Both the position numbers and the translations under genes were made by a program. The notes beneath the pieces were generated by a model that was not told the origin of the DNA, did not search any database, and saw nothing but the letters and a program-made list of their open reading frames with translations. Positions 697 to 54,810 of a stretch of DNA of 64,000 bases are shown here, in pieces. Origin of the DNA: Thermodesulfobacteriota bacterium (lineage in GTDB: Bacteria > Desulfobacterota_D > UBA1144 > Nemesobacterales > Nemesobacteraceae). Position 1 is the stretch's first letter. Every line of letters starts with the position of its first letter. The DNA is taken from NCBI GenBank assembly GCA_965116725.1, contig OZ220700.1, forward strand, positions 628,923-692,922. Reading direction: 5' to 3'.

Positions 697-759
697 AAAT
701 TATCAGCTTTTTGGGAACAGACAACGCAATTGCGACTTGGCGGCTGGAGAAACCAGATC

Positions 760-2175: not shown

Positions 2176-2178
2176 GAC

Positions 2179-2835: not shown

Positions 2836-2904
2836 TGGGAGAAAATATCATTAACCACATTCAAAATCAACATCGCCGCAGGAGTGATTAAATTTTAAGA
2901 TGTT

Positions 2905-2921
2905 ATGCACAATAAACGTGC
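2905..2921. promoter_or_regulatory. Candidate NtrC binding site (TGCAC-N7-GTGCA dyad) upstream of glnB
   Basis: Sequence aTGCACaataaacGTGCAt. Its outer half-sites match the 17-bp NtrC consensus TGCACCAnnnTGGTGCA. It lies about 200 bp upstream of the candidate -24/-12 element and about 260 bp upstream of the glnB ATG. Confidence 0.45.
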
Positions 2922-3120
2922 ATCGTCGGAAAAATCTGAAATATCGCTCGGAGGAAAAAGAGATTTTTTTACGAACAGAAATATAAATCGAGTCGCCTTC
3001 GGATTCTGAAAATATTTAATTATAAGAATTAGTTATAAAACAAAAAACTTCCCCTTCGCAAAAGAAACAGTTATTCTATGCCTCTATTTTAAGAACCAGT
3101 TCACTTAGAAACAAAAGAAA

Positions 3121-3137
3121 TGGTATATTTTTTGATA
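3121..3137 (+). promoter_or_regulatory. Weak sigma-54-like -24/-12 element (TGGTAT-N7-TTGAT) upstream of glnB. An overlapping sigma70-like TTGATA-N16-TAATAC is also possible.
   Basis: The GG to G spacing matches the sigma54 consensus TGGCAC-N5-TTGC, but -12 is GA rather than GC. It lies 45-60 nt upstream of the glnB ATG, with an AGGAGGA RBS at about 3163. Confidence 0.3.
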
Positions 3138-3165
3138 CTTTATTGTAATTGAATAATACGCTTAG

Positions 3166-3519
<354 letters not shown>

Positions 3520-3581
3520 TTAGCGCTCGCACCAAAGAAACTTTTCTCTGGAAACAATTGCATTAAGGAGGATTATTAATC

Positions 3582-5027
3582 ATGGCTACTAAGTCGGGTC
3601 AGCCCGCTTCTCCGAAGAAGCCGGCTGAAGTAATAAAATTCATAAAAGATTACGAGATCGAGTTTGTCGATCTCAGGTTTCTTGATTTTATAGGAATGTG
3701 GCAGCACTTCACCATACCGGCGGAGGAAGTTGACAAGTCGTTTTTTGAAAACGGCCTTGGTTTTGACGGTTCAAGCATCAGGGGATGGCAGGCGATTAAC
3801 ACAAGCGATATGCTCATTATGCCGGATCCCACCACCTGCAAGGTCGATCCTTTCATGCAGGCCCAGACTCTCGTCATAATATGTAATATTGAGGACCCCA
3901 TAACAAGGGAACCTTATACCAGAGACCCGAGAAACATAGCGAGAAAAGCTGTTTCTTTCATGCAAGGCTCGAAGATTGCAGACACTGCCTACTTTGGTCC
4001 CGAGTTGGAATTCTTCATTCTTGACGATGTAAGATACGATCAGAGTCCACGTGGCGGTTATTACTTCATAGATTCAGAGGAAGGCATCTGGAATTCCGGG
4101 GCCGATGAGCAGCCGAACCTCGGTCACAAGCTCAGGCACAAGGAAGGCTACTTTCCAACACCTCCCTCAGACAGCATGCATGACATACGTTCCGAAATGG
4201 TGAGCACGCTTCTAAGCCTTGGTATTTCCGTCGAAGCCCATCACCACGAGGTTGCGACATCGGGGCAGGCTGAAATCGATATGCGTTTCGCTCCGCTGGT
4301 CGACATGGGAGACAACATGAAATGGTACAAGTACGTGGTAAAGAACGTTGCCCGGGAACACGGGAAAACGGTCACTTTCATGCCGAAACCCGTCTTCGAC
4401 GACAATGGCTCCGGAATGCATGTTCACCAGTCCCTGTGGAAAAACGGAAAGCCTCTTTTCGCAGGAAAAGGGTACGCGGGACTGAGCGATCTTGCGATGC
4501 ATTATGTAGGCGGAATATTGAAGCATGCGAGGGCCATATGCGCATTCAGCAACCCGATAACGAATTCATACAGAAGGCTCGTTCCTGGGTTTGAAGCTCC
4601 TGTTAACCTCGCCTATTCGGCGAGAAACAGAAGTGCGGCGGTAAGGATCCCTATGTATTCTCCCAGCCCCAAGGCAAAGAGAATAGAGACCAGGTTCCCG
4701 GATCCTTCATGCAACGGTTACCTGACGTTTTCCGCTATGTTGATGGCTGGACTTGACGGAATCGAAAACAAGATCAAGCCGGGGGATCCGCTGGATAAGG
4801 ATATCTATGCCCTGGGGCCCGAGGAGCTAGCAAACGTTCCCTCCGTACCAGGTTCGCTTGAAGAGGCCATCAAAGCCCTTGAAGATGACCACGAGTTTCT
4901 GCTCAAAGGAGGAGTCTTCACAGAGGACGTAATTGAGACATGGATTGACTACAAAACGGAAAACGAAATCAATCCGATCAGGTTGAGACCCGTACCGTAT
5001 GAGTTCATGCTTTATTACGACGTATAA
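3582..5027 (+). CDS. glnA: Glutamine synthetase type I
   Basis: 481 aa. Conserved GSI motifs ([44 protein letters not shown]). AAGGAGG RBS. Follows glnB. Confidence 0.93.
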
Positions 5028-6941: not shown

Positions 6942-7287
6942 AGCTTTCCTCCCCGTCGTCCCAGGTTATAAGAACACTGATAATGGTCATCTTCGCTTCG
7001 AATTGGGTTAAGTTGTAGGGGGAAACTGTGAGATACCACTCAAAACCGGGATAATTTTCAAATTTCCCGCTTCTCTTCGAGTCCGACGTGAGCCCTTCAG
7101 CGTCGATCCGTGAAGCCATGTCGTCGGCCAGACTTGTGGCTATCAGGTAATTGGTAGACCTTGTAGCAAGATTTACATTGTGACCTACAATGCCGAGGAT
7201 TGACACCATCGCGAAGGCAAGTAACCCCACGGCAACCATGACTTCGAGCAACGTAAATCCGCAAATGCTGTTTTTCGAGGCTCTCAT
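6913..7287 (-). CDS. gspI: T2SS minor pseudopilin GspI-like
   Basis: 124 aa. GFTLLEVMVAV prepilin N-terminus. Size and position fit GspI. Confidence 0.55.
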   Translation of the reverse strand: MRASKNSICGFTLLEVMVAVGLLAFAMVSILGIVGHNVNLATRSTNYLIATSLADDMASRIDAEGLTSDSKRSGKFENYPGFEWYLTVSPYNLTQFEAKMTIISVLITWDDGEESYEISFVDSG

Positions 7288-7299
7288 ACAGTTCTTTCC

Positions 7300-7833
7300 C
7301 TACCGTTCCGCCAGATTCTGAAACCGGCTGTTAAATTCGACGTACTCGTCAAAAATCTTAGTGGCCCCAGTGTAGGGGTTTGTGGAGAGCGTGAAAAAAT
7401 TGTCCTCACCAGTTCGCAGGTGAATAACCGCCGAGTCAACAATCCCCGTCGGCAGAAAAAGTATAAATGCGTCTCTTCCGGAACCAATCTTCCCTTGGGT
7501 TCTCTCCGTCTGTATATCGCTGAAAAAAACCCCGCTGGGGAGCTTTCTGAATCCAGACGCGGAATCCTCTTCCAAGCGGAACTGGTTTTCCTCAAGAAAT
7601 TCTGCCCAGTATTCTCCGGTATCGATATCGAAAGAAAGCTTGTATATCCGTTTTTCAAAAATGGCTTTGCTGTAAATATGCCTTATCGTAGTGACAAGCC
7701 CTCTTGAAGCACTGCGAAGGTTCATGTCACCCGTTTTGAGGACTCTGGGCATGGCTACGGAGAAAAAAGCTCCGAGCAGAAAAACGACCACAATGAGTTC
7801 AATTAAGGTAAAACCAGCGGATTTTTTTCTCAT
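7300..7833 (-). CDS. gspH: T2SS minor pseudopilin GspH-like
   Basis: 177 aa. GFTLIELIVVV prepilin N-terminus. Position after gspG. Confidence 0.5.
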   Translation of the reverse strand: MRKKSAGFTLIELIVVVFLLGAFFSVAMPRVLKTGDMNLRSASRGLVTTIRHIYSKAIFEKRIYKLSFDIDTGEYWAEFLEENQFRLEEDSASGFRKLPSGVFFSDIQTERTQGKIGSGRDAFILFLPTGIVDSAVIHLRTGEDNFFTLSTNPYTGATKIFDEYVEFNSRFQNLAER

Positions 7834-8249
7834 CTGTCTCTGTTGGACAGATCATCGTCTGAATTCCCTATCCCATCCGGACCGTTAGACCTTATATAGT
7901 ACAATCCGTCCTCGGTCTGGTCGACCCCGAAGTACACAAACTCGTTCCCCCAAGGATCAAGTGGAACGCTTGCGGATTCAAGATAACGTCTCCACCTCTT
8001 GGCCTCCCTGCCCACCGTTACCGGTTCGACCAGAACACGTAGCCCCTGCTGGGTTTCAGGATAAAAACCGTTATCAAACTTAAACAGCTGGAGCGCCTGC
8101 TCAAACTGTTTGATCTGAATCATGGCCTGTTTTTCCTTTGCCCTCTCCCCCTGACCTATCACGTTCGTTCCCACTATGTAGGCGAGTCCCGCTATGATAA
8201 GCACGACCACCATAATTTCAATCAGAGTAAACCCCATCTGGGATCTCAT
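7830..8249 (-). CDS. gspG: T2SS major pseudopilin GspG
   Basis: 139 aa. MGFTLIEIMVVVLIIAGLA plus the conserved GspG core (VPLDPWGNEFVY...YIRSNGPDG). Confidence 0.85.
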   Translation of the reverse strand: MRSQMGFTLIEIMVVVLIIAGLAYIVGTNVIGQGERAKEKQAMIQIKQFEQALQLFKFDNGFYPETQQGLRVLVEPVTVGREAKRWRRYLESASVPLDPWGNEFVYFGVDQTEDGLYYIRSNGPDGIGNSDDDLSNRDR

Positions 8250-8267
8250 TTTTCTCTACCTCCCTGT

Positions 8268-9476
8268 TCAGCTTATTACAGAAGTTAGATTCAACACAGG
8301 TAAAAGTATAGCAAAAACTATAAAACCCATCACGACGCCCATAATCAGTATCATTACCGGCTCAAGAAGGGAAGTCAGCGTGGCAAGCATGCCGTCGACC
8401 TCGGTATCATACATATCGGCCACTTTCGACAGCATGACTTCCATTTTACCCGCCTCTTCCCCTACAGACACCATTCTCACCATTAGGGGAGGGAAAATCC
8501 CGGTCTGCCCAAGGCAACCTCCGAACGCCGCTCCCTCTGCAACCTTGACCCGGACATCCCTTATATTGTCAACATAAAGACTGTTTCCCATAACCGATTC
8601 GCTCACCCTGATGGATTCAAGAAGAGGAATGCCACTTGAAAGTAGCGTGGCAAGCGTTCTTGTGAAACGGGAAATCATCACTTTTGAAGACATTTTCCCG
8701 AACACTGGGATCCTCAGGGAAAACCTGTCGTAGACCTTCCTTCCGGAAGGAGTTTTTACGTACCTGTGTCCAAAAAATAATACGACGGCCAAGAAAACCA
8801 GCAGAAAGACAAAATTCTCCCTGAGAAAATCACTTGCACCTATAAGCATTACGGTAACAAACGGCAAAGCCTTGTTGCTGGCCTCGAATATATCGGCGAC
8901 TTTGGGAATTACGAAAGTCATCATGAAAACCAGTACCCCGAGTCCGACGATAAACATTATCGCCGGATATATCATGGCACCTCTGATCTTCGAAGTCAGC
9001 TCGAGCTGTTTTTCAAGGAAATCTGCAAGACGGTCGAGCACGACATCAAGAGTGCCGCTAGCCTCGCCGGCACGAACCATGCTCACGTAAAGATCAGAGA
9101 AAGCTCCTTCGTGCTCCTCAAGTGCGGCGTGAAGAGAGCTGCCTTCACTCACTCGGCTTCGCACCTGAGAGAGAATTCCCTTGAGCTTCTGGTCATCAGT
9201 CTGCTCGTAGAGGGCCACAAGTGAGGTCTCAAGAGGAAGGCCTGATGAGATCAGGGTTGAGAACTGTCTTGTCATAACGGCAAGTTCCGAGATGCTCACC
9301 CTGTTCCACGGAAGGCTCACCGACGAGCGGCGAGATCCACTGGCCTCTTTTATAGAGGAAAGATAGATGCCGCCTTTTCTGAGCCTGTCGCTTGCGATCT
9401 TGACCGATTCCGCGCTGATAACTCCCTTTACCGATTCGCCCTTGTCGTTGATGGCTTTATAGTTATAAACAGGCAT
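8268..9476 (-). CDS. gspF: T2SS inner-membrane platform protein GspF
   Basis: GspF/PilC family. Two repeated cytoplasmic domains and three TM segments. The start was taken at the internal Met MPVYNYKAI, which is the typical GspF N-terminus; this avoids overlap with gspE. Confidence 0.85.
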   Translation of the reverse strand: MPVYNYKAINDKGESVKGVISAESVKIASDRLRKGGIYLSSIKEASGSRRSSVSLPWNRVSISELAVMTRQFSTLISSGLPLETSLVALYEQTDDQKLKGILSQVRSRVSEGSSLHAALEEHEGAFSDLYVSMVRAGEASGTLDVVLDRLADFLEKQLELTSKIRGAMIYPAIMFIVGLGVLVFMMTFVIPKVADIFEASNKALPFVTVMLIGASDFLRENFVFLLVFLAVVLFFGHRYVKTPSGRKVYDRFSLRIPVFGKMSSKVMISRFTRTLATLLSSGIPLLESIRVSESVMGNSLYVDNIRDVRVKVAEGAAFGGCLGQTGIFPPLMVRMVSVGEEAGKMEVMLSKVADMYDTEVDGMLATLTSLLEPVMILIMGVVMGFIVFAILLPVLNLTSVIS

Positions 9477-25541: not shown

Positions 25542-27476
25542 TTACGAATGTTTTTCCCGGTATACGTAATTTCGTGCAAACAAAGAAAAGGCAAGGACAA
25601 GAAGGACAGCTTGGGGGATCGCGGTCTCATAAGAGGGATATATCCCGAGGGTATCCATGTAAGGAATGAAATCCGCCGTAGTTGAAGAAATAATTCCCGC
25701 CTCCTGGAGTTCAAGTATTCCCTTGCCAAGAAGTATGAAACAAAGCAAATAGAGGAAAACGCTCGTGAAGGAAAAGAAGTATTTAAGAGGAATCCTGAGG
25801 GTAAACCTGTACATAAGAAAGGCTATTACGAACACGACCGCCACTCCCGCAACAAGTCCATAGATCACGTGCGGCGTGGATGAACCGGTCTGGAAGAAAA
25901 GTGCCTGGTAAAAAAGCATCGTCTCGAAAGCCTCCCTGTAGACGGCAAGAAACGAAACGAAAGCAAGGGTAAGACCGCTTCTGCGTGTAAGCGCGCCCTG
26001 GGTCTTCGAGCGGACGTATTCCTTCCATTTTTTTACGTCCGCTTTTGAGACAAGCCAGTAACTTACGTAAAAAAGAATCGCTGCTGCCAGAAGAGAAGTC
26101 ACTCCTTCCACAATCTCCCTTCTAGCCCCCGAGATATCTATTATGGTTCTTGCCGCAACCCACGTCGCCAGTCCCGCAAAGATGGCGAGCACCCACCCGT
26201 AGTGAACGTACCTGATCATCCCGCGGTTACCTGAATGCGCCAAAGCGGCGATAATGGCCGCGATTATAAGCAGAGCCTCAAGCGCTTCTCTGAGTATTAT
26301 GGCAAAGGAATTAACAAAACTGAGGTATTTGCCGAGCGATGAGCCGCCTTGTAGGATGCGTTCCGACTCGCGAAGATCCTCCTCTATGCTAGCTTTCAGA
26401 TCATGAAGCTCGGAGGAATCCCGGTCGGACATCACTAATGACCTGAAAAATCCTATTTTTTTCTCAACCTCAAGAACAAGCGGTCTTTTTTTCGATACCA
26501 AGGCAGGTTCGATTCTCTGAAACCCTCCCAAGTACCCGTCGAGAGCCTCCTTGAAAGCCTCATCCTTTCTACCGGCCTCGTAAAGATCGATGGCCTCTTC
26601 AAGCTTCCTCAGGGTATGGGCTATAGCTTCGGATGCACCTCCAGCAATTCCATCCCGAAGATAAGCGGTTCTCAGGTAAAAAAGAACTTCCTCGTCACTG
26701 CCCCCGGCTCCGGCATTAAGAAGAATCTCCGCATTGCTAGCTAGGGCAAGGTTTTCAAGCTTTCTTACATCATGGGAAATATTCTCCGTGGAGAGCCCAG
26801 AAGTACCTCCGCCTGAGGGAATATCCGGATACCCAAGCGAGAGAACGTAAAACGCCACATCCCATTTCTGTTTTTCGTCAAGCACTTTTTCGAACGAGGT
26901 CATGGCGGTACCTTCGATCCCGAAAGTGGTGGTGTTGTAAACTTTAAAGGGTGAGAGCCCGAGATTTATATCAGGATCTGTGAAATCCGTGGGAGGAGGA
27001 TTGAGGGTCTTAGAGAAAGCATCGTCCGGCCTTCCTGAGAGCCCATGACAGGAGGAACAGTTCCTTACGTAAAGCTCTTTTCCGCTTTCGTAATCGGGTA
27101 TATTCGCCGGATAGGGTTTGATGGCATAGGCTGAAATGATCCGCCCCTTCAGTTCACCTGCAAGGCTTTCCACTTCGGAGACGGGTCCCTTGGATACTAC
27201 AATTGAGTGCAGACGTGCGAATTTTTCGGAAAAATCAGTTGTTCCTTCTCTCTTTTCACCCGTTTTTTCCCACAGGTCAACCGCTATGGAAGAAAAATCC
27301 AGCATTTCCTGATACTCAAATTCGTTTATGATCTCCCCTTCTTTTACGGCATTTGCGTAATCTCCTCCTATGTAATCGACAAGAGAGAGGATCCTGTCTA
27401 TCTCTGCGGCATAAGAGAATGCGGGAAAAAGAAAAAATATGAGAACTGACAAACAGAAGAAACTTTTTTTAAGCAT
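25542..27476 (-). CDS. Cytochrome c / FTR1-family high-affinity iron permease fusion
   Basis: Signal peptide. Periplasmic domain with a single CSSCHG haem-binding motif. The C-terminal polytopic domain has two RExxE motifs (REALEAL, REAFETM) diagnostic of FTR1/EfeU. Confidence 0.8.
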   Translation of the reverse strand: MLKKSFFCLSVLIFFLFPAFSYAAEIDRILSLVDYIGGDYANAVKEGEIINEFEYQEMLDFSSIAVDLWEKTGEKREGTTDFSEKFARLHSIVVSKGPVSEVESLAGELKGRIISAYAIKPYPANIPDYESGKELYVRNCSSCHGLSGRPDDAFSKTLNPPPTDFTDPDINLGLSPFKVYNTTTFGIEGTAMTSFEKVLDEKQKWDVAFYVLSLGYPDIPSGGGTSGLSTENISHDVRKLENLALASNAEILLNAGAGGSDEEVLFYLRTAYLRDGIAGGASEAIAHTLRKLEEAIDLYEAGRKDEAFKEALDGYLGGFQRIEPALVSKKRPLVLEVEKKIGFFRSLVMSDRDSSELHDLKASIEEDLRESERILQGGSSLGKYLSFVNSFAIILREALEALLIIAAIIAALAHSGNRGMIRYVHYGWVLAIFAGLATWVAARTIIDISGARREIVEGVTSLLAAAILFYVSYWLVSKADVKKWKEYVRSKTQGALTRRSGLTLAFVSFLAVYREAFETMLFYQALFFQTGSSTPHVIYGLVAGVAVVFVIAFLMYRFTLRIPLKYFFSFTSVFLYLLCFILLGKGILELQEAGIISSTTADFIPYMDTLGIYPSYETAIPQAVLLVLAFSLFARNYVYREKHS

Positions 27477-27691
27477 AGTCCGCGGACATCTCCCCATCTT
27501 GGGGGTCAGGGAAGGTACTTTTTACCATTCTAGACCTTTATTGTCAATAATTCTCATTGTCGTTATTTTCACCTTTCTAAATGGTTCCGGGAAGAAAATC
27601 AGACGGGTAATTTCGCTGATTTTCTTGTCTGTAAATATTTTTTAAAAAATTCTTGACATCCTAACTCCAGAATGTTATTAATCTGCGTCAT

Positions 27692-27706
27692 GGATATCAA
27701 ATATCC
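27692..27706. promoter_or_regulatory. Perfect inverted repeat GGATAT-CAA-ATATCC in the divergent FTR1/porin intergenic region (candidate operator)
   Basis: The AT-rich dyad lies about 55 nt upstream of the porin ATG. A second Fur-box-like AT-rich stretch (TTGTCAATAATTCTCATTGTCGTTATTTT) is at about 27541-27570. Confidence 0.35.
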
Positions 27707-27761
27707 ATAATATCTATTAATTGCGCAACCCTAAAAGGTAGTAAAAGGAGGATGTCAACAG

Positions 27762-29075
27762 ATGTTTAACTATACAAGACGGTGGAAAATTCTTTCTGTC
27801 TTTTTCCTGATTTTTTCACTCGCAGGAACTCAGGTTTCTCTAGCGGCCACAGCTTCGGAGGAAAAGATAAAAAAGCTTGAGGAGCAGATAAAGGTTCTAG
27901 CGGATGAGATAGAAGCCATAAAGTCCGCTTCGGTAATGGAGCCTCCAGTCTATGAGACAGAATTCGGTGTGGCCCCGGCGGCCTCGAAGGTCTACAGGGT
28001 TGACCAGGGAGTATCGTTCGGGGGATACGGTGAACTGCTTATAGCCAACGTAAAAGAGGATTCGCACGACATAGTGGATAACCTGAGACTTGTTCTCTAT
28101 AACGGCTACAAGTACAACGACCATATAGTTTTCAACTCGGAAATAGAATTCGAGCACGGTACAACGGGAAGCAACAAGGATGGAAAAGCGGGGTCGGCAT
28201 CGGTTGAGTTTGCGCTGATTGATTTTCTTATAAGCGATGAATTCAACCTGAGGGCCGGACTTCTCCTGACTCCTTTCGGAATCGTGAACGAGATTCACGA
28301 GCCAACGACGTTCTACGGAGTGGGTCGACCCGAGGTGGAGAGGCGGATAATTCCGAGTACATGGAGAGAGTCCGGGGCCGGGGCGCACGGAACGTTTGAT
28401 CTGGGCACCGGCGGGGAGCTTTCTTACAGGGCCTATGCAATGTCGAGCGCCGATGCCCGGGGATTTAAGGCATCGGATAACAGGAGTCTTAGGATCAAGG
28501 GAAACAGGGCTAGATTTGACGATATAGCTTTTGTCGGAAGGCTTGAGTACGACCCTATTCCGGGACTGAAAATCGGCGGGTCCATGTTCTACGGCAACAC
28601 GGGACAGGACGAAGAAGTTAATGGCCAGACGATAGACGGCCTTTTCCAGATGTACGAAGTTGACGCGCAGTTTCAGTATGCCGGGTTAGACCTGAGGGCT
28701 CTATCAGTCTGGACCATGCTGGATGACGCCGCACTTATAAACCAACTTAATGAGTATGAAGGCAACAAATCCGTCGGGGAAGAACAGTCCGGCTGGTATG
28801 TTCTAGGAGCATACAACATTTTCTCTGCGCTCAATTCCGGAAGCAAGTACCTAGAGTATCTGGCGCCTTTTTTCCGGTATGAAAAATTTGATACTCAGGA
28901 GAAAGTTCCCGTCGGATATGAAAGAGACCCGGCAAACGAAAGAACCCAATATACTTTCGGTATAAATTACAAACCGATCCCAAATGTAGTCATAAAAGCC
29001 GAGTATCAGAATCTTGATAACGCCGCGGATGAGGCGACGGATCAGTTCAACTTCGGGCTTGGGTACGTGTTTTAG
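27762..29075 (+). CDS. Putative outer-membrane porin (N-terminal coiled coil + beta-barrel, phosphate-selective porin O/P-like)
   Basis: Signal peptide. A coiled-coil stretch (EEKIKKLEEQIKVLADEIEAIK). Alternating amphipathic beta-strands. C-terminal aromatic (GLGYVF). Confidence 0.5.
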   Translation: MFNYTRRWKILSVFFLIFSLAGTQVSLAATASEEKIKKLEEQIKVLADEIEAIKSASVMEPPVYETEFGVAPAASKVYRVDQGVSFGGYGELLIANVKEDSHDIVDNLRLVLYNGYKYNDHIVFNSEIEFEHGTTGSNKDGKAGSASVEFALIDFLISDEFNLRAGLLLTPFGIVNEIHEPTTFYGVGRPEVERRIIPSTWRESGAGAHGTFDLGTGGELSYRAYAMSSADARGFKASDNRSLRIKGNRARFDDIAFVGRLEYDPIPGLKIGGSMFYGNTGQDEEVNGQTIDGLFQMYEVDAQFQYAGLDLRALSVWTMLDDAALINQLNEYEGNKSVGEEQSGWYVLGAYNIFSALNSGSKYLEYLAPFFRYEKFDTQEKVPVGYERDPANERTQYTFGINYKPIPNVVIKAEYQNLDNAADEATDQFNFGLGYVF

Positions 29076-29187
29076 GATACAGAACTTAAATCCGCGATAA
29101 ACGGGCGCGGGTTTATGCTTCTTTTTTTCTCTCTTTTTCTCTCTTCAAAAGGGCAATATTCAGATAGAATGTTGCCCTTCTTTAATC

Positions 29188-29739
29188 ATGAGTATGAGAA
29201 TCCTTATCTTAATAACGCTTTTGTTTTTTCTGCATGGTGCGGGAGATGCATCCGCCAAGGTCTTTCTTACCAAAGGCAGGGCGCTTGAGCTCCTTTTCCC
29301 TGAAGCAGAAGAAATAGAAAAAAGACACGTTTTTCTCACTAAACCCCAAGCCGAAAGCGTACGCGAAATGGCCAAGGTAGAAGTAGATTCAAGACTCTAC
29401 ACTTTCTACATAGCGAAATCCGGCGGGGAAGAGACAGGCTACGCGGTTATCGATACCCACACTCTTCGTACCTTGACCGAAACCGTAATGTTCGTAATAA
29501 ATCCCGATGGGACGCTTCGCCACGCCGAAACTCTCGCATTTTTCGAACCCACGGATTACATGCCAAGCGGAAAATGGATAAACTTGTTCCTGGAAAAAAC
29601 CAAGATGGACAGAATGAAGGTAGGAAAGGGAGTTCCCAACATTACTGGAGCCACTATAAGTGCCGTATCTTTTTCGCAAGCCACGAGAAGGGTTCTCGCA
29701 GTCTACAGGGTTATGCTCGGCACTCCGACTGATCAATAA
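29188..29739 (+). CDS. Secreted FMN-binding domain protein (ApbE substrate-type flavinylation motif)
   Basis: Signal peptide. C-terminal FMN_bind-like motif PNITGATISAVS ([ST]GAT[IV][ST]) as in NqrC/RnfG/PplA. An ApbE gene is 0.5 kb away. Confidence 0.65.
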   Translation: MSMRILILITLLFFLHGAGDASAKVFLTKGRALELLFPEAEEIEKRHVFLTKPQAESVREMAKVEVDSRLYTFYIAKSGGEETGYAVIDTHTLRTLTETVMFVINPDGTLRHAETLAFFEPTDYMPSGKWINLFLEKTKMDRMKVGKGVPNITGATISAVSFSQATRRVLAVYRVMLGTPTDQ

Positions 29740-29759
29740 CTTCTATCCAGGAGAGAAAA

Positions 29760-30257
29760 ATGAAATTCTTCATTTCATCGGACATAAGAAAAAACGATCT
29801 GTTAAAACTTGTCGTTCTGCTCACGACTATTTTCTTCCTCTTTTTGTGGTTAACCAACCTTCTGCTTTTCCTTAAGGTGGGGTTCAGCTATGAAAGCGTT
29901 GTTGAGTACTACAGGGGATCCGAAGAGAGTTTCAGGCCTCCGAGAAGCTACCTTGGGCTGCTCGAGGAAGCTCATTTCCACTTTTTCTCAATGGCCGTTT
30001 TACTGGTAACGCTAAATCATCTCTTTCTTTTCACTAACAGAAGCTCCGCCGAAAAGCTCCTCGTCATAATAGCGTCTTACGGCTCAGCCTTCCTCGATAT
30101 AGCCGGGGGCTGGCTAGTAAGGTACATAAGCGCCGAGTTTGCCTATGTTAAAATCGGCTCTTTTGTCGTCCTTCAGATATCTCTTCTTTACCTGATCATT
30201 TTCGTGACGTTTTATCTTTACAGAAAAAAACCGGAGTACCCGAAGCCGCAACAGTGA
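29760..30257 (+). CDS. 4-TM membrane protein with conserved intramembrane His residues (possible DUF4405-like haem b / quinol-interacting subunit)
   Basis: 165 aa. Four hydrophobic helices. A His cluster in TM2 (EEAHFHFFSMAVLLVTLNHLF). Located between the FMN-binding protein and ApbE. Confidence 0.4.
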   Translation: MKFFISSDIRKNDLLKLVVLLTTIFFLFLWLTNLLLFLKVGFSYESVVEYYRGSEESFRPPRSYLGLLEEAHFHFFSMAVLLVTLNHLFLFTNRSSAEKLLVIIASYGSAFLDIAGGWLVRYISAEFAYVKIGSFVVLQISLLYLIIFVTFYLYRKKPEYPKPQQ

Positions 30258-30269
30258 CTCCCCTGTACC

Positions 30270-31247
30270 CTACGGGCACGCATAAGACCCGAAGCAGGAC
30301 TTTTTCTTTCCGCTTTTCCCAACGACGAGAAAACCCTGAGATTTATACTTCCGGGCAAACTCCTGTGCTCCACGTAGGCCCAGAACCGAAACGGCAGTCG
30401 AGAAGACATCGGCTTCCGTAGCGGTTTTGGAAACGGCTACAACCGAAGTCACATCCTCAGCCGGCCAACCCGTCCTGGGATCAATTATATGGGAGTATCT
30501 TTTCCCATCGTGCTCAAAGTAGCGCTCATAATCTCCTGAAGTCGCGACACCCTTGTTCACAAGGTCAAGTTTCGAGATGATTTCGCTTCCGCTCCCGGGT
30601 TTCCTCACTCCCACATCCCAGAACTTTTTGCCCGCGGGGGGGTCCATTGCGTATATGTTTCCCCCGAAATTCACAAGCCCCCTCTTGATCCCGTTTTGCC
30701 TAGCGATATTTACGATCTCGTCAACCGCATAGCCTTTTCCTATAGCTCCGAAGTCGAGTCTAACGCAGTCGCCGTCAAGGAAAACCTGGGATTTAACTTC
30801 GTCTATTTTTATTTTCCGAAAACCCGTACACCCAAGTGCGTCGCGGATCCGTGACCGGCCGGGTAACCGCCCCGCCTTGGTCTCAGCCCCCCAGAGTTCG
30901 AAAAGACTGCCGATAGTTATGTCAAAAGCCCCTTCGGTAAGCTCCGAGTACTTAACCGAGGCCCGCACGAGACGTAGAAACTCTGTGGGAACGGAAACGG
31001 GAGCAACTCCCGCATTTCTGTTCACCTCAGCAAGAACACTGTCATCCCTGTAGTTACTGAAAAGCCGGTCTATTTCCTTGGTTCTCTTCACGCAGGCATC
31101 AACAACCCGGTGAAAAAGTTCCTCGCTCGGGGAATAAAACTTAAGTTCCACCGTTGAACCCATCGAGTAAAAAGATCTCTCGTAAAGATTCTCCGTACCG
31201 TGGGAGCAGGAACAAAGAAGCAAAGCTAAAAGCACAAGAAGGCGCAT
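30270..31247 (-). CDS. apbE: FAD:protein FMN transferase ApbE (lipoprotein)
   Basis: 325 aa. Lipobox LLCSCS. ApbE core motifs (GAIGKGYAVDEIV, VNFGGNIYAMD, ATSGDYERYFEHDGKRYSHIIDPRTG). Confidence 0.85.
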   Translation of the reverse strand: MRLLVLLALLLCSCSHGTENLYERSFYSMGSTVELKFYSPSEELFHRVVDACVKRTKEIDRLFSNYRDDSVLAEVNRNAGVAPVSVPTEFLRLVRASVKYSELTEGAFDITIGSLFELWGAETKAGRLPGRSRIRDALGCTGFRKIKIDEVKSQVFLDGDCVRLDFGAIGKGYAVDEIVNIARQNGIKRGLVNFGGNIYAMDPPAGKKFWDVGVRKPGSGSEIISKLDLVNKGVATSGDYERYFEHDGKRYSHIIDPRTGWPAEDVTSVVAVSKTATEADVFSTAVSVLGLRGAQEFARKYKSQGFLVVGKSGKKKSCFGSYACP

Positions 31248-31274
31248 ATCTTGAGAATCACGTAAAGCGTTTTT

Positions 31275-31357
31275 CTGCGAGAGGAGGGAGTCGAACCCTC
31301 ACACCCTAAGGTACTAGATCCTAAATCTAGCGCGTCTGCCTGTTCCGCCACTCTCGC
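31275..31357 (-). tRNA. tRNA-Leu (anticodon TAG), type II
   Basis: Reverse complement: GCGAGAG acceptor, CTAGA-TTTAGGA-TCTAG anticodon arm, long variable arm, GAGGG-TTCGACT-CCCTC T-arm. Confidence 0.85.
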
Positions 31358-31429
31358 CCTTTACAGTCAAAAATCGCCAAGCACCCGGAATCATGGTTCC
31401 GGACAGCACCGTAAGATGCAAAATGAATT

Positions 31430-31502
31430 GGGCTGCGAGGGATTCGAACCCACGACCGACTGATTAAGAGTCAGCTGCTCTACCAGGCTGAGCTAGCAGC
31501 CC
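31430..31502 (-). tRNA. tRNA-Lys (anticodon CTT)
   Basis: Reverse complement: GGGCTGCTAGCTCAGCCTGGTAGAGCAGCTGACTCTTAATCAGTCGGTCGTGGGTTCGAATCCCTCGCAGCCCA. Anticodon loop CTCTTAA. Confidence 0.88.
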
Positions 31503-31580
31503 GCAAACAGAATAACAGAAAAGAAAATAAATGAAAACTGGGACGTCGGGCTGCCAAAGCAGCTAAAACTCCCTGCCTTT

Positions 31581-32513
31581 TTGAACTCTTCCCTAAGATC
31601 GTTTATTTTTGAAGTTGTGGAAAATGTGATCAATTATTTCAAGGGATATCATAACGCATATCAGGCGCATGTAGAAAACCTGCTACTGTCGATTCTTATA
31701 GTCGCTATCCTGTTCCTCCTGAGAAAGATTCTCATCTCTCTCATAAGCAACAACACAAAAGATCCCAAGACAGTCTATTACTCGAAACGCATTATCGGAT
31801 ACGTATATGTTTTTCTCGCCATAGTGCTGGTCGGGAGCGTTTGGATAAGCGGCCTGGGTCATATAGGGGCCTATCTGGGTATAGCAAGCGCCGGTCTGGC
31901 CATAGCGCTTCATGAAACCTTAGCCAACATTGCGGGCTGGTTCTTCATACTCTGGAGAAAGCCCTTCGTGATAGGTGACCGCATACAGATAGGTGAAACC
32001 AAGGGCGACGTAGTAGACATGAGGTTGTTTCAGTTCAGTCTGATCGAGATCGGGAACTGGGTTGAAGCGGAGCAGAGTACGGGCAGAATCATACACGTTC
32101 CCAACAGCCACGTGCTCAGGGAAAAAACCGCGAATTATCACGGCGGGTTCAACTACATATGGAACGAGATACAGGTTCTCATAACGTTTGAGAGCAACTG
32201 GAGAAAAACCCGCGAGATTCTGGAAAAAATAGTGAGGGAAAAAATCAAATTCTCTCCGGAACGGGCTGAGGAACAACTTCGCGCGGTTGCCAAAAAGTAC
32301 ATGATACATTTACCGAAACTCACCCCTGCTGTTTACATGTCGACAAGGGACAACGGAGTGCTTTTCTCTATCAGGTACACAACAAACCCGAGAAGAAGAA
32401 GAGGTTCGGAGCAGACCATCTGGGAAGCTGTGCTTGCCGAGTTTGAAAAGCATCCCGACATTGATCTCGCCTACCCGACGACGCGTTTTTATACCCCGCC
32501 TGAAAATCCCTAA
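31581..32513 (+). CDS. MscS-family small-conductance mechanosensitive channel
   Basis: TM helices followed by the MscS beta-domain signature (GDRIQIGETKGDVVDMRLFQFSLIEIGN). Confidence 0.75.
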   Translation: MNSSLRSFIFEVVENVINYFKGYHNAYQAHVENLLLSILIVAILFLLRKILISLISNNTKDPKTVYYSKRIIGYVYVFLAIVLVGSVWISGLGHIGAYLGIASAGLAIALHETLANIAGWFFILWRKPFVIGDRIQIGETKGDVVDMRLFQFSLIEIGNWVEAEQSTGRIIHVPNSHVLREKTANYHGGFNYIWNEIQVLITFESNWRKTREILEKIVREKIKFSPERAEEQLRAVAKKYMIHLPKLTPAVYMSTRDNGVLFSIRYTTNPRRRRGSEQTIWEAVLAEFEKHPDIDLAYPTTRFYTPPENP

Positions 32514-45679: not shown

Positions 45680-45753
<74 letters not shown>

Positions 45754-47027: not shown

Positions 47028-47392
47028 CGAGTCGGTCATGCGGTCGCCCGCGGCTTGTACGCGGGAGGAAAGTCCGAGCTTCGCAGGGCAGGGCGCTGGT
47101 TAACGACCAGGTGTCGCGAGACAACGGAAAGTGCAGCAGAAAGCATACCGCCTGGGCGCCGTAGGCGCCTCGGTAAGGGTGAAAAGGTGGTGTAAGAGAC
47201 CACCGCTCCGAAAGTGATGGAGGAGGCAAGGCAAACCCCGCCTGAAGAAAGACAAATAGGAAAACATCCGGACAACTGTCCGGTCAGGGCGGCCCGTCCT
47301 GGTTTTCGGGTAGTCGCTTAAGGTATCCTGGCAACAGGTATCTCAGATGGATGACCGTACTTGACAGAACTCGGCTTACAGGCTGACTCGCT
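47028..47392 (+). ncRNA. rnpB: RNase P RNA (bacterial type A)
   Basis: P1 helix (GCGAGUCGG / CUGACUCGC). Conserved GGGAGGAAAGUCCGAGCUUCGCAGGGCA (P4/CR-I). GGUAAGGGUGAAAAGGUGGUGUAAGAGACCACC (P10-12 region). ACAGAACUCGGCUUACAGG 3' P4 strand. Confidence 0.85.
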
Positions 47393-47460
47393 TCCTTCCC
47401 CTATTTCTTGCGTAAACAAGTTCGTTATGGTCAGAATCATCCGGAAAAAACTGGGCTTGA

Positions 47461-50211: not shown

Positions 50212-53200
50212 TCAGTTTCCGCTTACGCGTGCGAGATCTCGCTTGTTCTCTTCAAAAGCCGCCATAAGAGCTTCGTCACCCGAAAGACCGCTCTGTTGTG
50301 CGCGGTTTATGTGCTCGAGCATTCTCTTGTAGTCTTTCGGTATCACCTTAACGAATCTGGGAAGACTCCCGGACCAGTTCTCCAATATCCGCTGCGCTAC
50401 TTCACTTCCAGTGTACTCAAGGTGTTTCCTTATCATCCCAAGAAGTTCCGCTTCGTCATTCTCCTCCACGAATTCAAGGAACACGGATTCGGTATTGCAC
50501 CTTCCGTGGAAATCCCCCTCGGGATCGTAAACATACGCCATGCCGCCCGACATCCCGGCCGCAAAATTCCTCCCGGTCGAACCCAGCACCACGACGCGGC
50601 CCCCGGTCATGTACTCGCAGCAGTGATCCCCGACAGCCTCCACCACGGCGCGGACTCCGCTGTTTCTCACGCAGAACCTCTCCCCGGCAACACCTCTCAC
50701 GTAGGCTTCCCCTCCGGTGGCGCCGTAGAACGCTACGTTCCCGATTATTATATTCTCCTCCGCAACGAAGGTGGACTCTTTCGGCGGATAAATGATCATT
50801 TTCCCTCCAGAAAGCCCCTTTCCCGTATAGTCGTTCGAGTCACCCTCGAGAATAAGTGTCATGCTCTTGGGAACGAAGGCTCCGAAGCTTTGGCCCGCCG
50901 AACCAGAGAAATGAAGTCTTATCGTATCCTCCTCAAGCCCATCAAGGCCGTATCTTCTCGTAAGCTCGCTTCCGACTATGGTCCCCACAGTTCTGTTAAC
51001 GTTCTTTATGGGGACATCGGCACGGACCCGCTCTCCCTTTTCAATCGTCGGGCGGCATATATCCATCAGGACGGTTTCGTCAAGAGAGTTCTGTATGCCG
51101 TGGTCCTGTTCGATCTGGCAGTAGGTTCCCCAGTCCTCGGGAACTTCGGGACGGAAAAGAATGCTGTTTATATCTATGCCTTTGGCCTTCCAGTGATCAA
51201 GCGATTTTCTCATCTCGAGGCGGTCCGTTCTGCCTATCATCTCGTTTACGGTCCTAAAGCCCATCTTCGCCATTATTTCACGGAACTCTGCGGCGACAAA
51301 ATGCATGAAATCGACCACGTGCGCCGGATCTCCGGTGTATTTCTTTCGAAGCTCGGGGTTTTGCGTGGCAACTCCCACGGGACAGGTGTCAAGATGGCAG
51401 ACCCTCATCATTATGCATCCGAGAACTATGAGCGGGGCCGTGGAAAAACCGTACTCCTCTGCGCCCAGAAGGGCCGCGATGGCCACATCCCTTCCGGTTT
51501 TCATCTGACCGTCCGTCTCAAGAACCACCCTGCTTCTAAGGTTGTTAAGAACAAGCGTCTGATGCGTCTCGGCTATGCCCAGCTCCCAAGGAAGTCCCGC
51601 GTGGTGTATGCTGCTTTGCGGAGATGCTCCCGTTCCCCCAGAGGTTCCGCTTATGAGTATCACGTCCGCATGACCCTTCGCCACGCCGGCGGCTATGGTG
51701 CCGACGCCGACCTCGGAAACCAGCTTGACATTTATCCTCGCGTGCTTGTTCGCGTTTTTAAGATCGTAGATAAGCTGCGCCAGATCCTCGATCGAGTAGA
51801 TGTCGTGGTGCGGGGGCGGCGATATGAGGCCCACTCCCGGAGTCGAAAGCCTCACCTTGGCTATCCACGGGTAGACCTTTCTCCCGGGAAGCTGTCCCCC
51901 TTCACCCGGCTTCGCTCCTTGGGCTATCTTTATCTGTATCTCATCTGAGTTCACCAGGTATTCGCTCGTGACACCGAAACGGCCGGAAGCAACCTGCTTT
52001 ATGGCGCTTCTCCTGAGATCCCCGTTCGGATCGGGGGTATATCTGTCGGAATCTTCTCCCCCCTCGCCCGTGTTGCTCTTGGCTCCTATCCGGTTCATTG
52101 CGATCGCAAGGCTTTCGTGGGCCTCCTTGCTTATCGCCCCGTAGGACATAGCCCCCGTCTTGAACCTTCTGCATATGCTCTCGACCGACTCCACCTCGTC
52201 AAGCGGCACGGGATTGTCCGAGTACTTAAGCTCCATCAGGCCGCGGAGCGTAAAATGTTCCTTTTCCTCATCGTTTGCAAGCTTCGTGTATTCCTTGAAT
52301 TTCTCGTAGCTTCTCGCCTGGCAGGCTTCCTGAAGCTTGTGCACGGTGCGCGGGTGGTACATGTGACGTTCCCCGTCGGGCCTCCACCTGTAAACCCCTC
52401 CAGTCTCAAGCGTCGCAGTCTCGACATCCCTTTCTGCATAAGCCTTAGAGTGACGTTTTATCGATTCCTCCGCTATGACGTCAATTCCCACTCCCTGTAT
52501 ACGGGAAGCCGTCCATGTGAAGTATTTCCCGACAAACTCGGTATTTAGTCCGAGGGCCTCGAATATCTGGGCCCCGTGGTAGCTTTGCACCGTGGAGATA
52601 CCTATTTTGGACATTATTTTCACTATGCCCTTCACGAGACTCTTCACGTACCCGGAGACCGCTTCCTCGTAAGATATGCCCACAAGCATGTTCTGGTGGA
52701 TCATGCCGTTTAGGGTCTCGTAAGCCATGTAGGGGGCGACGGCGCTTGCGCCATAACCTATAAGAAGCGCCATGTGGTGAGTCTCCCTCGGTTCGCCCGA
52801 TTCAACGACGAGCGCCGTGCGCATTCTGTTTCCGTTTTTTATCAGATGGTGGTGAAGCCCCGAGACCGCCAGCAAGGCGGGAATGGGGGCGTTTTCCGCA
52901 TCAAAGCCCCTGTCCGAGAGAACCAGGATGTTGGCACCCTTTTCTATGAGTTCATCGGCGCGGACAAATATCCCGGAGAGCGCCTCCTCTAGCCCCTCGA
53001 CTCCCTTTTTGGGATCAAAAAGAGTGGGGATTACTTCGCAGCGGAACTTCTCCCCGTGAATGGTTTTCAGCTTTTCGATTTCCGGGTTCGTAAGAAACGG
53101 GGTCTCAAGTTCTAATTTCTCGGAGCTTTTCGCCTCGGGACGGAGTATGTTGGCCGTCTTGCCCAGCGTGACCATGGTCCCGGTTATAAGTTCCTCGCGT

Positions 53201-54810
53201 ATGGCATCAATAGCGGGATTTGTGACCTGAGCGAACATCTGCTTGAAATAGTTGTAAAGAAGCTTCGATTCGTCAGAGAGCGCCGCAAGCGGGGTATCGA
53301 CTCCCATGGCACCCACAGGTTCGACCGCGTTTTTCGACATCGGACCCAGGAGAATGCGCAGATCCTCGAAAGTGTAGCCGAAGACTCTCTGCCTCGTAAG
53401 AAGCGCTTCGGAGTCATACTCGGGCGGAGTCTCCGCCGGCTCTCCTTCCATAATCCCGGAGAAGCTCTCCATGTTCTCCCTGAGCCACTTTCCGTAGGGT
53501 TTTTCCGTTGAAAGTCTCTTCTTGAGTTCCGTGTCGCCAACGATGCGGCCTTCACGCGTGTCTATAAGAAGCATCCTTCCCGGGAGCAGGCGACCCTTGT
53601 AGCTCACCCTCTCGGGCGGTATGTCGAGGACCCCCACTTCTGAACCCAGCACCACGGTGTCATCCTTGGTAACGTAATATCTCGTGGGACGAAGCCCGTT
53701 TCTGTCAAGCACCGCTCCCACTTTCTCACCGTCTGTAAAAGCTATGGAAGCAGGACCGTCCCAGGGTTCCATAAGGCAACTGTGAAACCTGTAGAAATCC
53801 TTTTTCTCCTCGGACATGCTCTCGTGCTTTGACCACGGCTCGGGAATCATCATCATCACGGCGTGCTCTATCGAGTAGCCCGACAGGCAAAGAAATTCCA
53901 TCGCGTTATCAAAAGAGGCGGAATCGCTTCCCTCGGGAGCTATCACTGGGAAAATCTTTTCTATATCGTCGCCGTAGAACTCGGATTCCAAAACGGCCTG
54001 CCTTGAGTGCATCCAGTTTATGTTCCCACGAAGCGTGTTTATCTCGCCGTTATGTATCACGTATCTGTAAGGGTGAGCCCTGTCCCAGCTCGGAAACGTG
54101 TTCGTGCTGAAACGCGAGTGCACAAGCGCTATTGCGCTTTCCATGAGATCAGACATGAGGTCCGGGAAATAGGGCACAAGCTGCCAGGTAACAAGCATTC
54201 CCTTGTAAACTATTGTCCTCGACGAAAGGCTAGGCACATAGAAAGACTCGTCGCGTCCCGCAGTCTTTATTTCGTTCTCCGCGCGTTTTCTTATTATGTA
54301 GAGTCTTCTTTCGAAATCGTCCCCGGCGGGAGTGCCGTCTCCCCGGCCGATAAATATCTGCCTTATCCCGGGCTCACACCCAAGAGCGGTTGCGCCCAGA
54401 GAAGAGTTGTCGGTCGGAACGGCCCGCCAGCCCAAAACGCTCTGGCCTTCCTCGGTGACTATATCCTCAAGCCTCTTTTTCGTTTTCTTCTCAACAGATG
54501 GATCCGGAGAGAGAAATATCATTCCGACTCCGTAATCCTCTTCTGAAGGGAGGGTGACTCCCTCAGACTTCAAGGCATCGACGAAAAACGCGTGGGGTTT
54601 CTGGAACAGTATTCCGGCGCCGTCTCCCGTGTTCGGCTCGCATCCGCAGGCCCCGCGGTGCTCCAAGTTTTTTAGGACGGTTATAGCATCGCGGATTATG
54701 GAATTTGACCTCGCACCCTTAACGTTAACAACGAATCCTATTCCGCAGGAATCGTGCTCAAACGCAGGATCGTAAAGTCCTCTTTTTTCAGGAAGTTTCT
54801 TAAAATTCAT
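50212..54810 (-). CDS. gltB: Glutamate synthase large subunit
   Basis: 1532 aa. N-terminal amidotransferase Cys (HDSCGIGFV). FMN and GXGXG C-terminal domains. Confidence 0.95.

Follow-up and report, generated by a model that had tools for sequence, protein, structure and literature searches.

We set out here what a small group of adjoining genes may be doing in a 64,000-nucleotide stretch of the genome of a Thermodesulfobacteriota bacterium (contig OZ220700.1; 'the window' means this whole stretch), and our answer is that they probably encode an envelope module that reduces ferric iron for uptake. The module consists of an outer-membrane channel (the porin), a secreted flavin mononucleotide (FMN)-binding protein of 183 amino acids (aa), a 165-aa inner-membrane protein with four transmembrane (TM) helices, which we call TM4, and an ApbE-type transferase that is predicted to attach the flavin. 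A preliminary description of the sequence had proposed an extracytosolic flavinylated electron-transfer module in an iron-uptake setting, and an ApbE-dependent extracytosolic flavoprotein module that has a dedicated membrane partner and is linked to iron is indeed supported by what follows. When it comes to the whole mechanism, an iron-linked periplasmic flavin reductase fed with electrons through TM4, we consider the chances of its being right or wrong to be evenly balanced, and it therefore has to be weighed against several quite different readings of the same genes.

These genes keep each other's company across a wide range of bacteria. Scanning one genome per GTDB species, and locating the components by tblastn, yielded 80 loci from the Dadabacteria/Thermodesulfobacteriota, Entotheonella, Methylococcales, a Methyloversatilis, Rokubacteria, Binatia and Acidobacteriota. 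The FMN gene lies directly upstream of the TM4 gene in 79 of them (the exception is at a contig edge), with a median gap of 25 nt, and a porin homologue lies directly upstream of the FMN gene in 77; because this arrangement is kept in 80 loci from different species, it is far beyond chance. The porin, which had been taken for an add-on from the iron locus, is thus part of the conserved core. The apbE gene is found in the flank of 42 of the 80 loci, in 30 cases convergent and downstream, as in the window, in 10 upstream on the same strand and in two downstream on the same strand, so that in the relatives it adjoins the module rather than nqr or rnf genes, none of which was seen among the recurrent or Pfam-scanned neighbours of the module loci. 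Other neighbours in the distant loci are housekeeping genes (metF-like, ubiE-like, pdxH-like, rpoA, lytB, ddl, lpxK and rhamnose synthesis), among which we looked for a shared iron transporter or reductase and found none, and across clades there is no recurrent neighbour cluster beyond the porin, the FMN protein, TM4 and ApbE. Since its other neighbours are unrelated housekeeping genes, the porin-FMN-TM4 triad, whether or not apbE goes with it, acts as a cassette that is complete in itself.

The same parts also recur in more remote relatives. In three loci (L081, L082 and L085) an FMN_bind gene is followed by a tandem TM4 gene, and in a fourth (L088) apbE stands ahead of this pair; two more (L083 and L084) have apbE, a porin homologue, an FMN homologue and a tandem TM4, together with a divergent TonB-dependent receptor, and a further two (L086 and L087) have the porin, the FMN protein and TM4. 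A metagenomic locus, L090, carries the porin, the FMN protein and a fusion of TM4 to ApbE in the same order as in the window. We regard it as strongly supported that the flavoprotein and TM4 form an obligate pair and that ApbE belongs to the module, as the TM4::ApbE fusions show. As separate observations, a gene for a CCP_MauG di-haem cytochrome c peroxidase (7982-9337) sits between the porin and FMN genes of a gammaproteobacterial metagenome-assembled genome (MAG; L076), and a small cupredoxin-like Cu-oxidase_3 gene (7255-7872) sits just upstream of the porin gene in a Dadabacteria MAG (L040); the products of both genes are additional redox partners in the periplasm.

The flavoprotein looks to be a divergent RnfG/NqrC-type FMN-binding protein with a variant flavinylation motif. 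Judged by eye, its N-terminus resembles a signal peptide (MSMRILILITLLFFLHGAGDASA, ending before K; encoded at 29188-29256), in which a basic residue and a hydrophobic stretch are followed by A-S-A ahead of K24. With a profile built from 65 homologues, RnfG from the Rnf complex of Acetobacterium woodii (9eri_G) is hit at an E-value of 3.2e-6 over residues 52-174, and I-T-G-A-T-I-S of the window protein lines up with I-T-G-S-T-I-T of RnfG. In addition, a Foldseek search with an AlphaFold2 (AF2) model, whose predicted local distance difference test (pLDDT) score is 76.5 overall, gave 18 best PDB matches that are all RnfG or NqrC, with E-values of at least 1.3e-3 and TM-scores of 0.26-0.43. The residues T153-G-A-T156-I-S158 are encoded at nt 29644-29661, and the predicted flavinylation motif P150-N-I-T-G-A-T156 at 29635-29655, with the codon of the predicted FMN-bearing Thr156 at 29653-29655. 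Among the 65 homologues G154, A155, T156 and I157 are invariant and T153 is kept in at least 90%, so the putative acceptor Thr is conserved throughout. The earlier claim that a TGATIS sequence marks this as an FMN_bind protein therefore stands as far as the motif and the family homology are concerned, the latter being detectable by profile, but the canonical Asp of the motif, to which we return below, is absent.

The adjacent probable lipoprotein was correctly recognised as an ApbE carrying the core motifs. It matches Pfam ApbE (PF02424) with 273.9 bits against a cutoff of 25.6 (E 1.9e-81; profile positions 1-259 of 266), has the motifs GAIGKGY, TSGDYER, SHIIDPRTG and DVFSTA, and begins with a lipobox-like LLLCSC. 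The NCBIfam ApbE model is matched at E 2.3e-50 with 171.5 bits, under its equivalog cutoff of 498, and we accordingly classify the protein, on its sequence, as a member of the ApbE family and not as an E. coli-type equivalog.

TM4 is the component about which the most needs to be said. By its sequence it belongs to PF27139 (Aq_1264_TM), an uncharacterised Pfam family; the precomputed annotation PF27139.1 is attached to all 120 TM4 homologues among the matches listed, which are 61-94% identical to it. The description of a 165-aa four-TM protein with three His in one helix is borne out by an AF2 model (pLDDT 81), which has four long helices and a short periplasmic helix, with H72, H74 and H87 (codons 29973-29975, 29979-29981 and 30018-30020) all on the helix of residues 64-90 (TM2), as an H-x-H with a further H after twelve residues, and with all three invariant in 62 homologues. 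Most of the other invariant residues, namely T32, N33, Y50, Y51, G53, R59, Y64, W118 and K131, fall in the half of the protein that is predicted to face the periplasm, together with E69, E70 and D113, which are nearly invariant. Identity with DUF4405, MsrQ or PepSY was considered and rejected, the window protein having no Pfam match at E≤0.1, and PF14358, PF01794, PF03929 and PF16357 are absent among the 62 homologues scanned at E≤10; the proposed comparison with DUF4405 and DUF2271 thus gave no match for TM4 or for these homologues. An NCBIfam scan assigned TM4 to no family, and its family profile found only chance matches among PDB sequences.

Much can be learned from TM4 proteins that have been fused or duplicated. 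An exhaustive profile search of 1.84 billion representatives returned 607 family members, and the variants described here are drawn from the best 150 of these. Fusions of TM4 to ApbE occur in P0251, P0252 and P0260, confirmed by Pfam, and also in the metagenomic L090 mentioned above, and P0254 consists of two TM4 repeats and ApbE. In these TM4::ApbE fusions the order is TM4, a basic linker, a fifth TM helix and a periplasmic ApbE domain; because ApbE is placed in the periplasm after a fifth TM helix, both termini of TM4 itself are predicted to be cytoplasmic, with H72 and H74 at the periplasmic end of TM2 and H87 near its cytoplasmic end. Two other proteins have cytoplasmic C-terminal fusions, one (P0320) of TM4 with a DtxR-type metal-binding domain (Fe_dep_repr_C) and FeoA, the other (P0273) of TM4 with PilZ, and these suggest that TM4 activity is gated by cytoplasmic metal or by cyclic di-GMP (c-di-GMP).

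The same 150 proteins include many tandem TM4 duplications of about 310 aa, and it is their His residues that are most telling. In 22 of 22 tandem proteins (P0248, P0256 and P0266 among them) the first repeat keeps only H72 and the second keeps H74 and H87, whereas 77 of the 89 single-domain representatives have all three. Because the His residues have been lost in this complementary fashion, the pattern strongly indicates that TM4 works as a parallel dimer with a composite site, made of H72 from one protomer and H74 and H87 from the other. Such a site may hold one bis-His haem (H72' with H74), with the other His lying deeper, or it may serve as a path for metal or bind quinone or flavin.

Taken together, these features can be assembled into the following scheme, in which homology and motif suggest that ApbE would use flavin adenine dinucleotide (FAD) to attach FMN covalently to Thr156, and in which the flavoprotein would then act with TM4, its partner in an invariant gene order. 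The most likely task of the TM4 dimer, whose site the tandem relatives lead us to build from H72 of one subunit and from H74 and H87 of its partner, would be to hand electrons of the quinol pool on to the flavin in the periplasm, by way of either one bis-His haem b at the periplasmic face or a quinol site that needs no cofactor, and the reduced flavin would in turn reduce Fe(III) species entering by the dedicated channel.

One unlikely alternative is that TM4 is itself an Fe2+ permease, in which iron that has come in by the channel and been reduced by the flavoprotein crosses the inner membrane through a His/Glu ladder of E69, E70, H72, H74 and H87 at the dimer interface and the flavoprotein has its donor encoded elsewhere. 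The conserved polar residues of TM4 (E69, E70, H72, H74, H87, D113, N33 and Q139) are indeed typical metal ligands, the fact that the tandem proteins retain three His asymmetrically is easier to reconcile with one pathway at the interface than with symmetric haem sites, and the DtxR-type domain and FeoA of P0320 resemble the regulatory domain of a transporter; the triad would, moreover, suffice for uptake with no further transporter. Such a permease would, however, make the FTR1 iron permease redundant where the two occur together (in the window's own clade and in the Rokubacteria locus L074, described below), the TM4::ApbE fusions tie TM4 to flavin chemistry rather than to transport, and TM4 has no likeness to any known metal transporter. 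A periplasmic flavoprotein also needs a source of electrons, and we favour electron input through TM4 over a pure permease because the module holds no other conserved one.

The fusions with ApbE raise another thought, which is that TM4 might serve flavinylation, as an exporter of FAD for ApbE or as a membrane platform on which the FMN protein matures, and so stand outside the redox chain altogether. There are several independent TM4::ApbE fusion clusters, one of them with two TM4 repeats, and the route by which FAD reaches ApbE has been called 'still obscure' (PMC12052999). If true, a small dimeric flavin exporter or hand-off device would explain the repeated fusion and bear on the question of the FAD route. 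We nevertheless think this improbable. TM4 is tied to the FMN gene in 79 of 80 loci and more loosely, in 42 of 80, to apbE, while one would expect an all-purpose exporter of FAD to go with apbE and not with one substrate subfamily, and we know of no precedent for an eight-TM dimer with an invariant His triad as a dinucleotide exporter. It is because TM4 is coupled to the FMN gene rather than to apbE that we favour a working partnership between flavoprotein and TM4 over a role in maturation.

If the flavoprotein and TM4 do form a ferric reductase, the porin might be where its substrate enters. Its signal peptide and N-terminal coiled coil apart, it is notable for being 38-73% identical across phyla, which is unusually conserved for an outer-membrane protein. 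Its motifs include SEIEFEH at residues 126-132 and, at residues 176-203, a segment running from NEIHEP to RPEVERRIIPSTWRE, and its invariant residues are E127, E129, E131, H132, E149, N176, H179, E180, R189 and E193; the Glu/His clusters SEIEFEH, NEIHEP and RPEVER look like a specific binding or constriction site, as far as sequence can suggest one. Weak matches to BBP2, IAT_beta, OMP_b-brl and Porin_O_P were obtained for the window porin (sub-threshold) and for 14 of 20 homologues, and a family profile searched against the PDB found only coiled coils and marginal OmpX/OmpA segments. A Cyc2-like fused porin-cytochrome was considered too and set aside, as the porin contains no Cys.

The link to iron is most visible in the divergently transcribed neighbour of the porin gene, which encodes a fusion of cytochrome c to an FTR1 permease. 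The FTR1 domain (PF03239) is matched with 103.4 bits against a cutoff of 25.3 (E 1.7e-29), Cytochrom_C with 38.3 bits (E 3.6e-9) and the NCBIfam EfeU/Ftr1 model at E 3.9e-42; the protein has a signal peptide, then a periplasmic domain, some 370 aa long, that holds a single CSSCH (27045-27059), and after it the permease, with RExxE motifs at residues 403 (REALE; 26277-26291) and 521 (REAFE; 25923-25937). This gene adjoins the module in 27 of the 80 loci, all of them in the window's own clade and down to L036 (49% identity), and is thus a clade-specific neighbour outside the module's conserved core. A second case is L074, a Rokubacteria MAG in which FTR1, apbE, porin, FMN and TM4 genes follow one another on the same strand (282-4994), with short gaps and some overlapping open reading frames (ORFs), and in which FTR1 (with REAFE and REGAE) is plain, without a cytochrome c domain. 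The association with FTR1 therefore arose at least twice independently, in the window's clade and in L074, and the preliminary description was right that the module is bolted to an FTR1 permease in the window. This holds in those 27 loci and in L074, but the permease is no part of the core.

FTR1-type permeases, such as those of Fet3-Ftr1, EfeUOB and FtrABCD, characteristically need Fe(II) to be oxidised before transport. By analogy, in the window's clade the Fe(II) made by the flavoprotein would pass to the cytochrome c-FTR1 fusion, be re-oxidised at its haem c domain and be imported, so that the whole would do in a bacterium what the Fre reductase and Fet3-Ftr1 do together in yeast. The same need for prior oxidation could also be turned round, with Fe(II) being oxidised at the haem c of FTR1 and its electrons reaching the quinone pool by way of the flavoprotein and then TM4. 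Such a flow has a parallel in what has been proposed for FtrB and FtrD of FtrABCD, and would agree with the window FTR1 carrying its own haem c, with the cupredoxin gene near the porin of L040 and with the di-haem peroxidase gene inside the operon of L076. We consider such a reversed flow very unlikely, however, since most lineages keep the module without FTR1, on which its function therefore cannot depend, and since electron transfer from haem c to FMN would be strongly uphill, c-type haem typically lying above +200 mV and protein-bound FMN near -200 mV.

The case for ferric reduction by the module also draws on its regulation. Scoring matches to the 19-nt E. coli-type Fur consensus GATAATGATAATCATTATC in the 150 bp upstream of the porin gene, we found at least 14 of 19 positions matched in 66% of 38 distant loci, against 3.9% of 306 control regions (other intergenic regions of the same loci) and 1.7% of shuffles, and at least 15 of 19 in 45% of the distant loci, against 1.6% and 0.13%, respectively, these counts coming from partly related loci and so not being independent. 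Examples are GATATTGATAATCATTATC (L072, 18/19) and AATAATGATAATCATTTTC (L028, 17/19). By inspection such sites show the G and C positions of the Fur type and not the PerR type, and in the distant loci they persist where the surrounding sequence has diverged. In addition, a DtxR-family regulator is encoded not far from the module in a further Rokubacteria locus (L069). Given Fur-like sites upstream of the operon, FTR1 in two unrelated lineages and the fusion of TM4 to a DtxR-type domain, it is strongly supported that in several lineages the module goes together with the regulation of iron and with permeases for it.

Fur regulons commonly include substitutions of flavin for iron, flavodoxin being an example, and the module might likewise be an iron-sparing flavin substitute for a periplasmic cytochrome task, such as repair or detoxification, that is induced through Fur under iron shortage and stands next to FTR1 by coincidence. 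That most loci lack FTR1 would suit this view, which we nonetheless hold to be a poor prospect: a dedicated and highly conserved channel with acidic and His motifs points to the uptake of a solute, the association with FTR1 arose twice independently, and TM4 has been fused to an iron/manganese-sensing domain. Ferric reduction for uptake is the reading with which we continue.

In the window itself the regulatory signals are less clear, and Fur control in its clade is weakly indicated. A search for strict Fur boxes (at most three mismatches) found none in the window. The intergenic region between the FTR1 and porin genes contains a conserved block (27523..27563), ACCATTCTAGACCTTTATTGTCAATAAT, which holds the palindrome TTATTG-T-CAATAA and overlaps a Fur-like site. 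Further on lies a putative porin promoter (TTGACA, 17 nt, TGn-TATTAA), followed just downstream by a perfect palindrome at 27691-27709, ATGGATAT-CAA-ATATCCAT (TGGATAT-N3-ATATCCA), which is kept in 20 or 21 relatives, among them the distant L036; one relative that keeps it has only 70% TM4 identity. A simple scan for promoters and terminators was at background level, and did not list the porin promoter since its -10 hexamer ends in A. Separately, the top Fur score in the 64-kb window, equalled at one other place, is a 15/19 match, GAGTATGAGAATCCTTATC, at 29190-29208, overlapping the start of the FMN gene; it could be a chance match within coding sequence.

A good deal also weighs against our preferred reading. 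As regards the flavin, the FMN_bind search that had been proposed came out divided, with homologues 45-60% identical to the 183-aa protein carrying PF04205 and the single sequence falling below threshold (18.0 bits against a gathering cutoff of 22, E 0.0047), and the region of the flavin site (residues 120-160) reaches a pLDDT of only 50-60 in the AF2 model. Moreover, the ApbE motif is D-x-x-[S/T]-G-A-[S/T] (PMC12052999), and in this family the canonical Asp, at position -6, is replaced by P150, which is invariant among the 65 homologues; the missing Asp does not preclude flavinylation, since changing it to Ala was reported to have only a minor effect (PMC12052999). As regards electron entry, TM4 resembles no known cytochrome b or quinol-binding protein in sequence or fold, and two bis-His haems, as in a classical di-haem transmembrane cytochrome b, are excluded as its conserved core because the tandem relatives keep only three His per pseudo-dimer. 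As regards iron, FTR1 adjacency is missing from most lineages, the remote lineages have no E. coli-type Fur boxes, and the Fur counts share the dependence among loci noted above. The window's own Fur-like site (27543-27561, minus strand, GACAATGAGAATTATTGAC) is a weak 14/19 match whose right half is not kept in close relatives, and the palindrome at 27691-27709 looks like an operator for a repressor other than Fur. Finally, literature searches on aq_1264, on PF27139 and on Dadabacteria with iron and FMN-binding found nothing.

The features of the locus are collected in Table 1. All three ORFs of the preliminary description, those of the FMN protein, TM4 and ApbE, are present exactly where it had placed them.

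Table 1. Genes and regulatory elements of the locus, in window coordinates.
Feature	Position	Strand	Description
FTR1 gene	25542..27497	-	cytochrome c-FTR1 fusion iron permease, 651 aa; Pfam FTR1 and Cytochrom_C, NCBIfam
Conserved intergenic block	27523..27563	.	alignment of 21 related intergenic regions
Putative porin-operon promoter and operator-like palindrome	27654..27709	+	conserved among 21 relatives aligned
Porin gene	27762..29075	+	437-aa beta-barrel channel predicted for the outer membrane; opens the conserved module
FMN gene	29188..29739	+	predicted secreted RnfG/NqrC-like FMN-binding protein, 183 aa
TM4 gene	29760..30257	+	four-TM inner-membrane protein, 165 aa, PF27139 (Aq_1264_TM)
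apbE	30270..31247	-	ApbE FAD:protein FMN transferase, 325 aa, probable lipoprotein

In the window apbE is convergent with the TM4 gene, and 12 bp separate their stop codons. Directly upstream of apbE, and on its strand, are genes for tRNA-Leu(tag) (31276-31357, minus strand) and tRNA-Lys(ctt) (31429-31502, minus strand), the former 28 bp from the apbE start codon; given this short gap and the shared strand, apbE may be transcribed by read-through from the tRNA promoter, apart from the porin-FMN-TM4 operon. The locus is flanked by housekeeping genes, with tig, clpP and clpX on one side and genes for an MscS-like protein and an M16 peptidase on the other. Elsewhere the window has a class A RNase P RNA gene (47028-47394, plus strand, 292 bits) and a tRNA-Met gene (45680-45753), which bear no relation to the module, as well as a 1532-aa ORF (50212-54810, minus strand).

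In the databases the nearest relatives come from MAGs that bear the label Candidatus Dadabacteria or Thermodesulfobacteriota. When the window is compared with the closest record, L001 (OZ219811.1), identities form a mosaic, with Tig, FTR1 and TM4 at 100%, ApbE at 93%, the porin at 89% and MscS at 81%, and single genes are closer in other MAGs (MscS, for example, is 98% identical in L003), a pattern that suggests that strains living together have recombined or that the MAG assemblies are chimeric.

Why might this matter more widely? ApbE-flavinylated proteins have come to be regarded as a third broad class of electron carriers outside the cytosol, next to cytochromes and thioredoxins, and for many of them the point at which electrons enter from the membrane is obscure. 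The TM4 family is widespread, with about 600 representative clusters at 50% identity in our metagenome-scale search, and a module with an outer-membrane channel of its own spans all three envelope layers. If the proposed mechanism is true, TM4 would be a new type of membrane protein for electron input, with a composite His site across a four-TM dimer, and flavin-based reductive iron uptake would be at work in little-studied, mostly uncultured groups, for example the Dadabacteria, Rokubacteria, Entotheonella and some methanotrophs.

How, then, does the module compare with systems that are already known? Its flavoprotein is most readily set beside RnfG and NqrC, with which it shares the FMN_bind (PF04205) family, an [ST]-G-A-T aligned to the flavinylated Thr, a polytopic membrane partner and, as far as can be predicted here, an extracytosolic location and a dependence on ApbE. 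It differs from them in an N-terminus that looks like a cleavable signal peptide and not an anchor, in an invariant FFEP motif that replaces the typical ETPGLG region, in the invariant Pro at the position of the motif Asp, and in a membrane partner that is an unrelated four-TM protein. The likeness to NQR/RNF that had been suggested thus holds for the FMN-binding subunit but not for the rest of the complex, no other RNF/NQR subunit (NqrB/RnfD, NqrD/E) being encoded near the window locus.

Among FTR1 systems, the window shares with yeast Fre1 and Fet3-Ftr1, and with EfeUOB and FtrABCD, an FTR1 with two RExxE motifs and extracytosolic redox partners, and the proposed logic is also the same, in that Fe(III) is reduced outside and the product then oxidised at the permease. 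The partners, however, are not homologous: the haem c domain in the window stands in place of a multicopper oxidase, cupredoxin or DyP peroxidase, and a predicted covalent flavoprotein with TM4 in place of a flavocytochrome b dependent on NADPH (reduced nicotinamide adenine dinucleotide phosphate) or a polyferredoxin. The extracellular electron transfer (EET) system of Listeria (FmnB/ApbE, PplA, EetA, EetB and Ndh2) is similar in its ApbE-type transferase, extracytosolic FMN_bind protein, small membrane proteins and ferric reduction, the last proposed for our module, yet PplA, a lipoprotein, contains two FMN_bind domains, where the 183-aa protein has one and lacks a lipobox; ndh2, dmk and fmnA are absent near the window locus, and the window module adds an outer-membrane channel.

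The closest precedents in the literature are the flavinylation-associated systems catalogued by Meheust et al. (2021, PMC8238504), which take in PepSY-like/FoxB and MsrQ-like systems as well as P19-FTR1 clusters that contain an FMN_bind gene; that study links systems flavinylated by ApbE to the assimilation of iron time and again, the FTR1/P19 clusters among them (PMC8238504). Those systems and ours have in common ApbE with an extracytosolic flavinylated protein (in our case a predicted one), neighbouring iron transporters (FTR1, VIT1 or TonB receptors), a tie to Fur (putative in our case) and a proposed assimilatory reduction of ferric iron, and, as in the P19-FTR1 clusters, an FTR1 gene and an FMN-binding gene stand together in the window, in 27 of the 80 loci and in L074. 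Unlike them, the window module is without P19, PepSY, MsrQ, NapH-like and DsbD genes (P19, PF10634, has no match among the six window genes from 25542 to 32513), and P19-type clusters are mostly Gram-positive, while the window module is diderm and has an outer-membrane component. TM4 may be compared with DUF4405 and FezC, haem b membrane partners linked to flavinylation and ferrosomes (Huang et al. 2024, PMC10979944), which are likewise small membrane proteins beside apbE with transmembrane His as their most conserved residues, and FezC is proposed to form haem sites by homodimerisation (PMC10979944), much as TM4 appears to build its His site across a dimer. In contrast to DUF4405, however, TM4 has four TM helices instead of six and three conserved His on one helix instead of four, and the three His per pseudo-dimer of the tandem proteins leave room for at most one conserved bis-His haem. 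The porin, PF27139 and the triad are not described in either study (PMC8238504, PMC10979944). The logic, by which ApbE and a flavoprotein outside the cytosol are joined to a partner in the membrane and linked to iron, is therefore a known one, and what is new here is the uncharacterised membrane partner and the outer-membrane component with which it has been combined.

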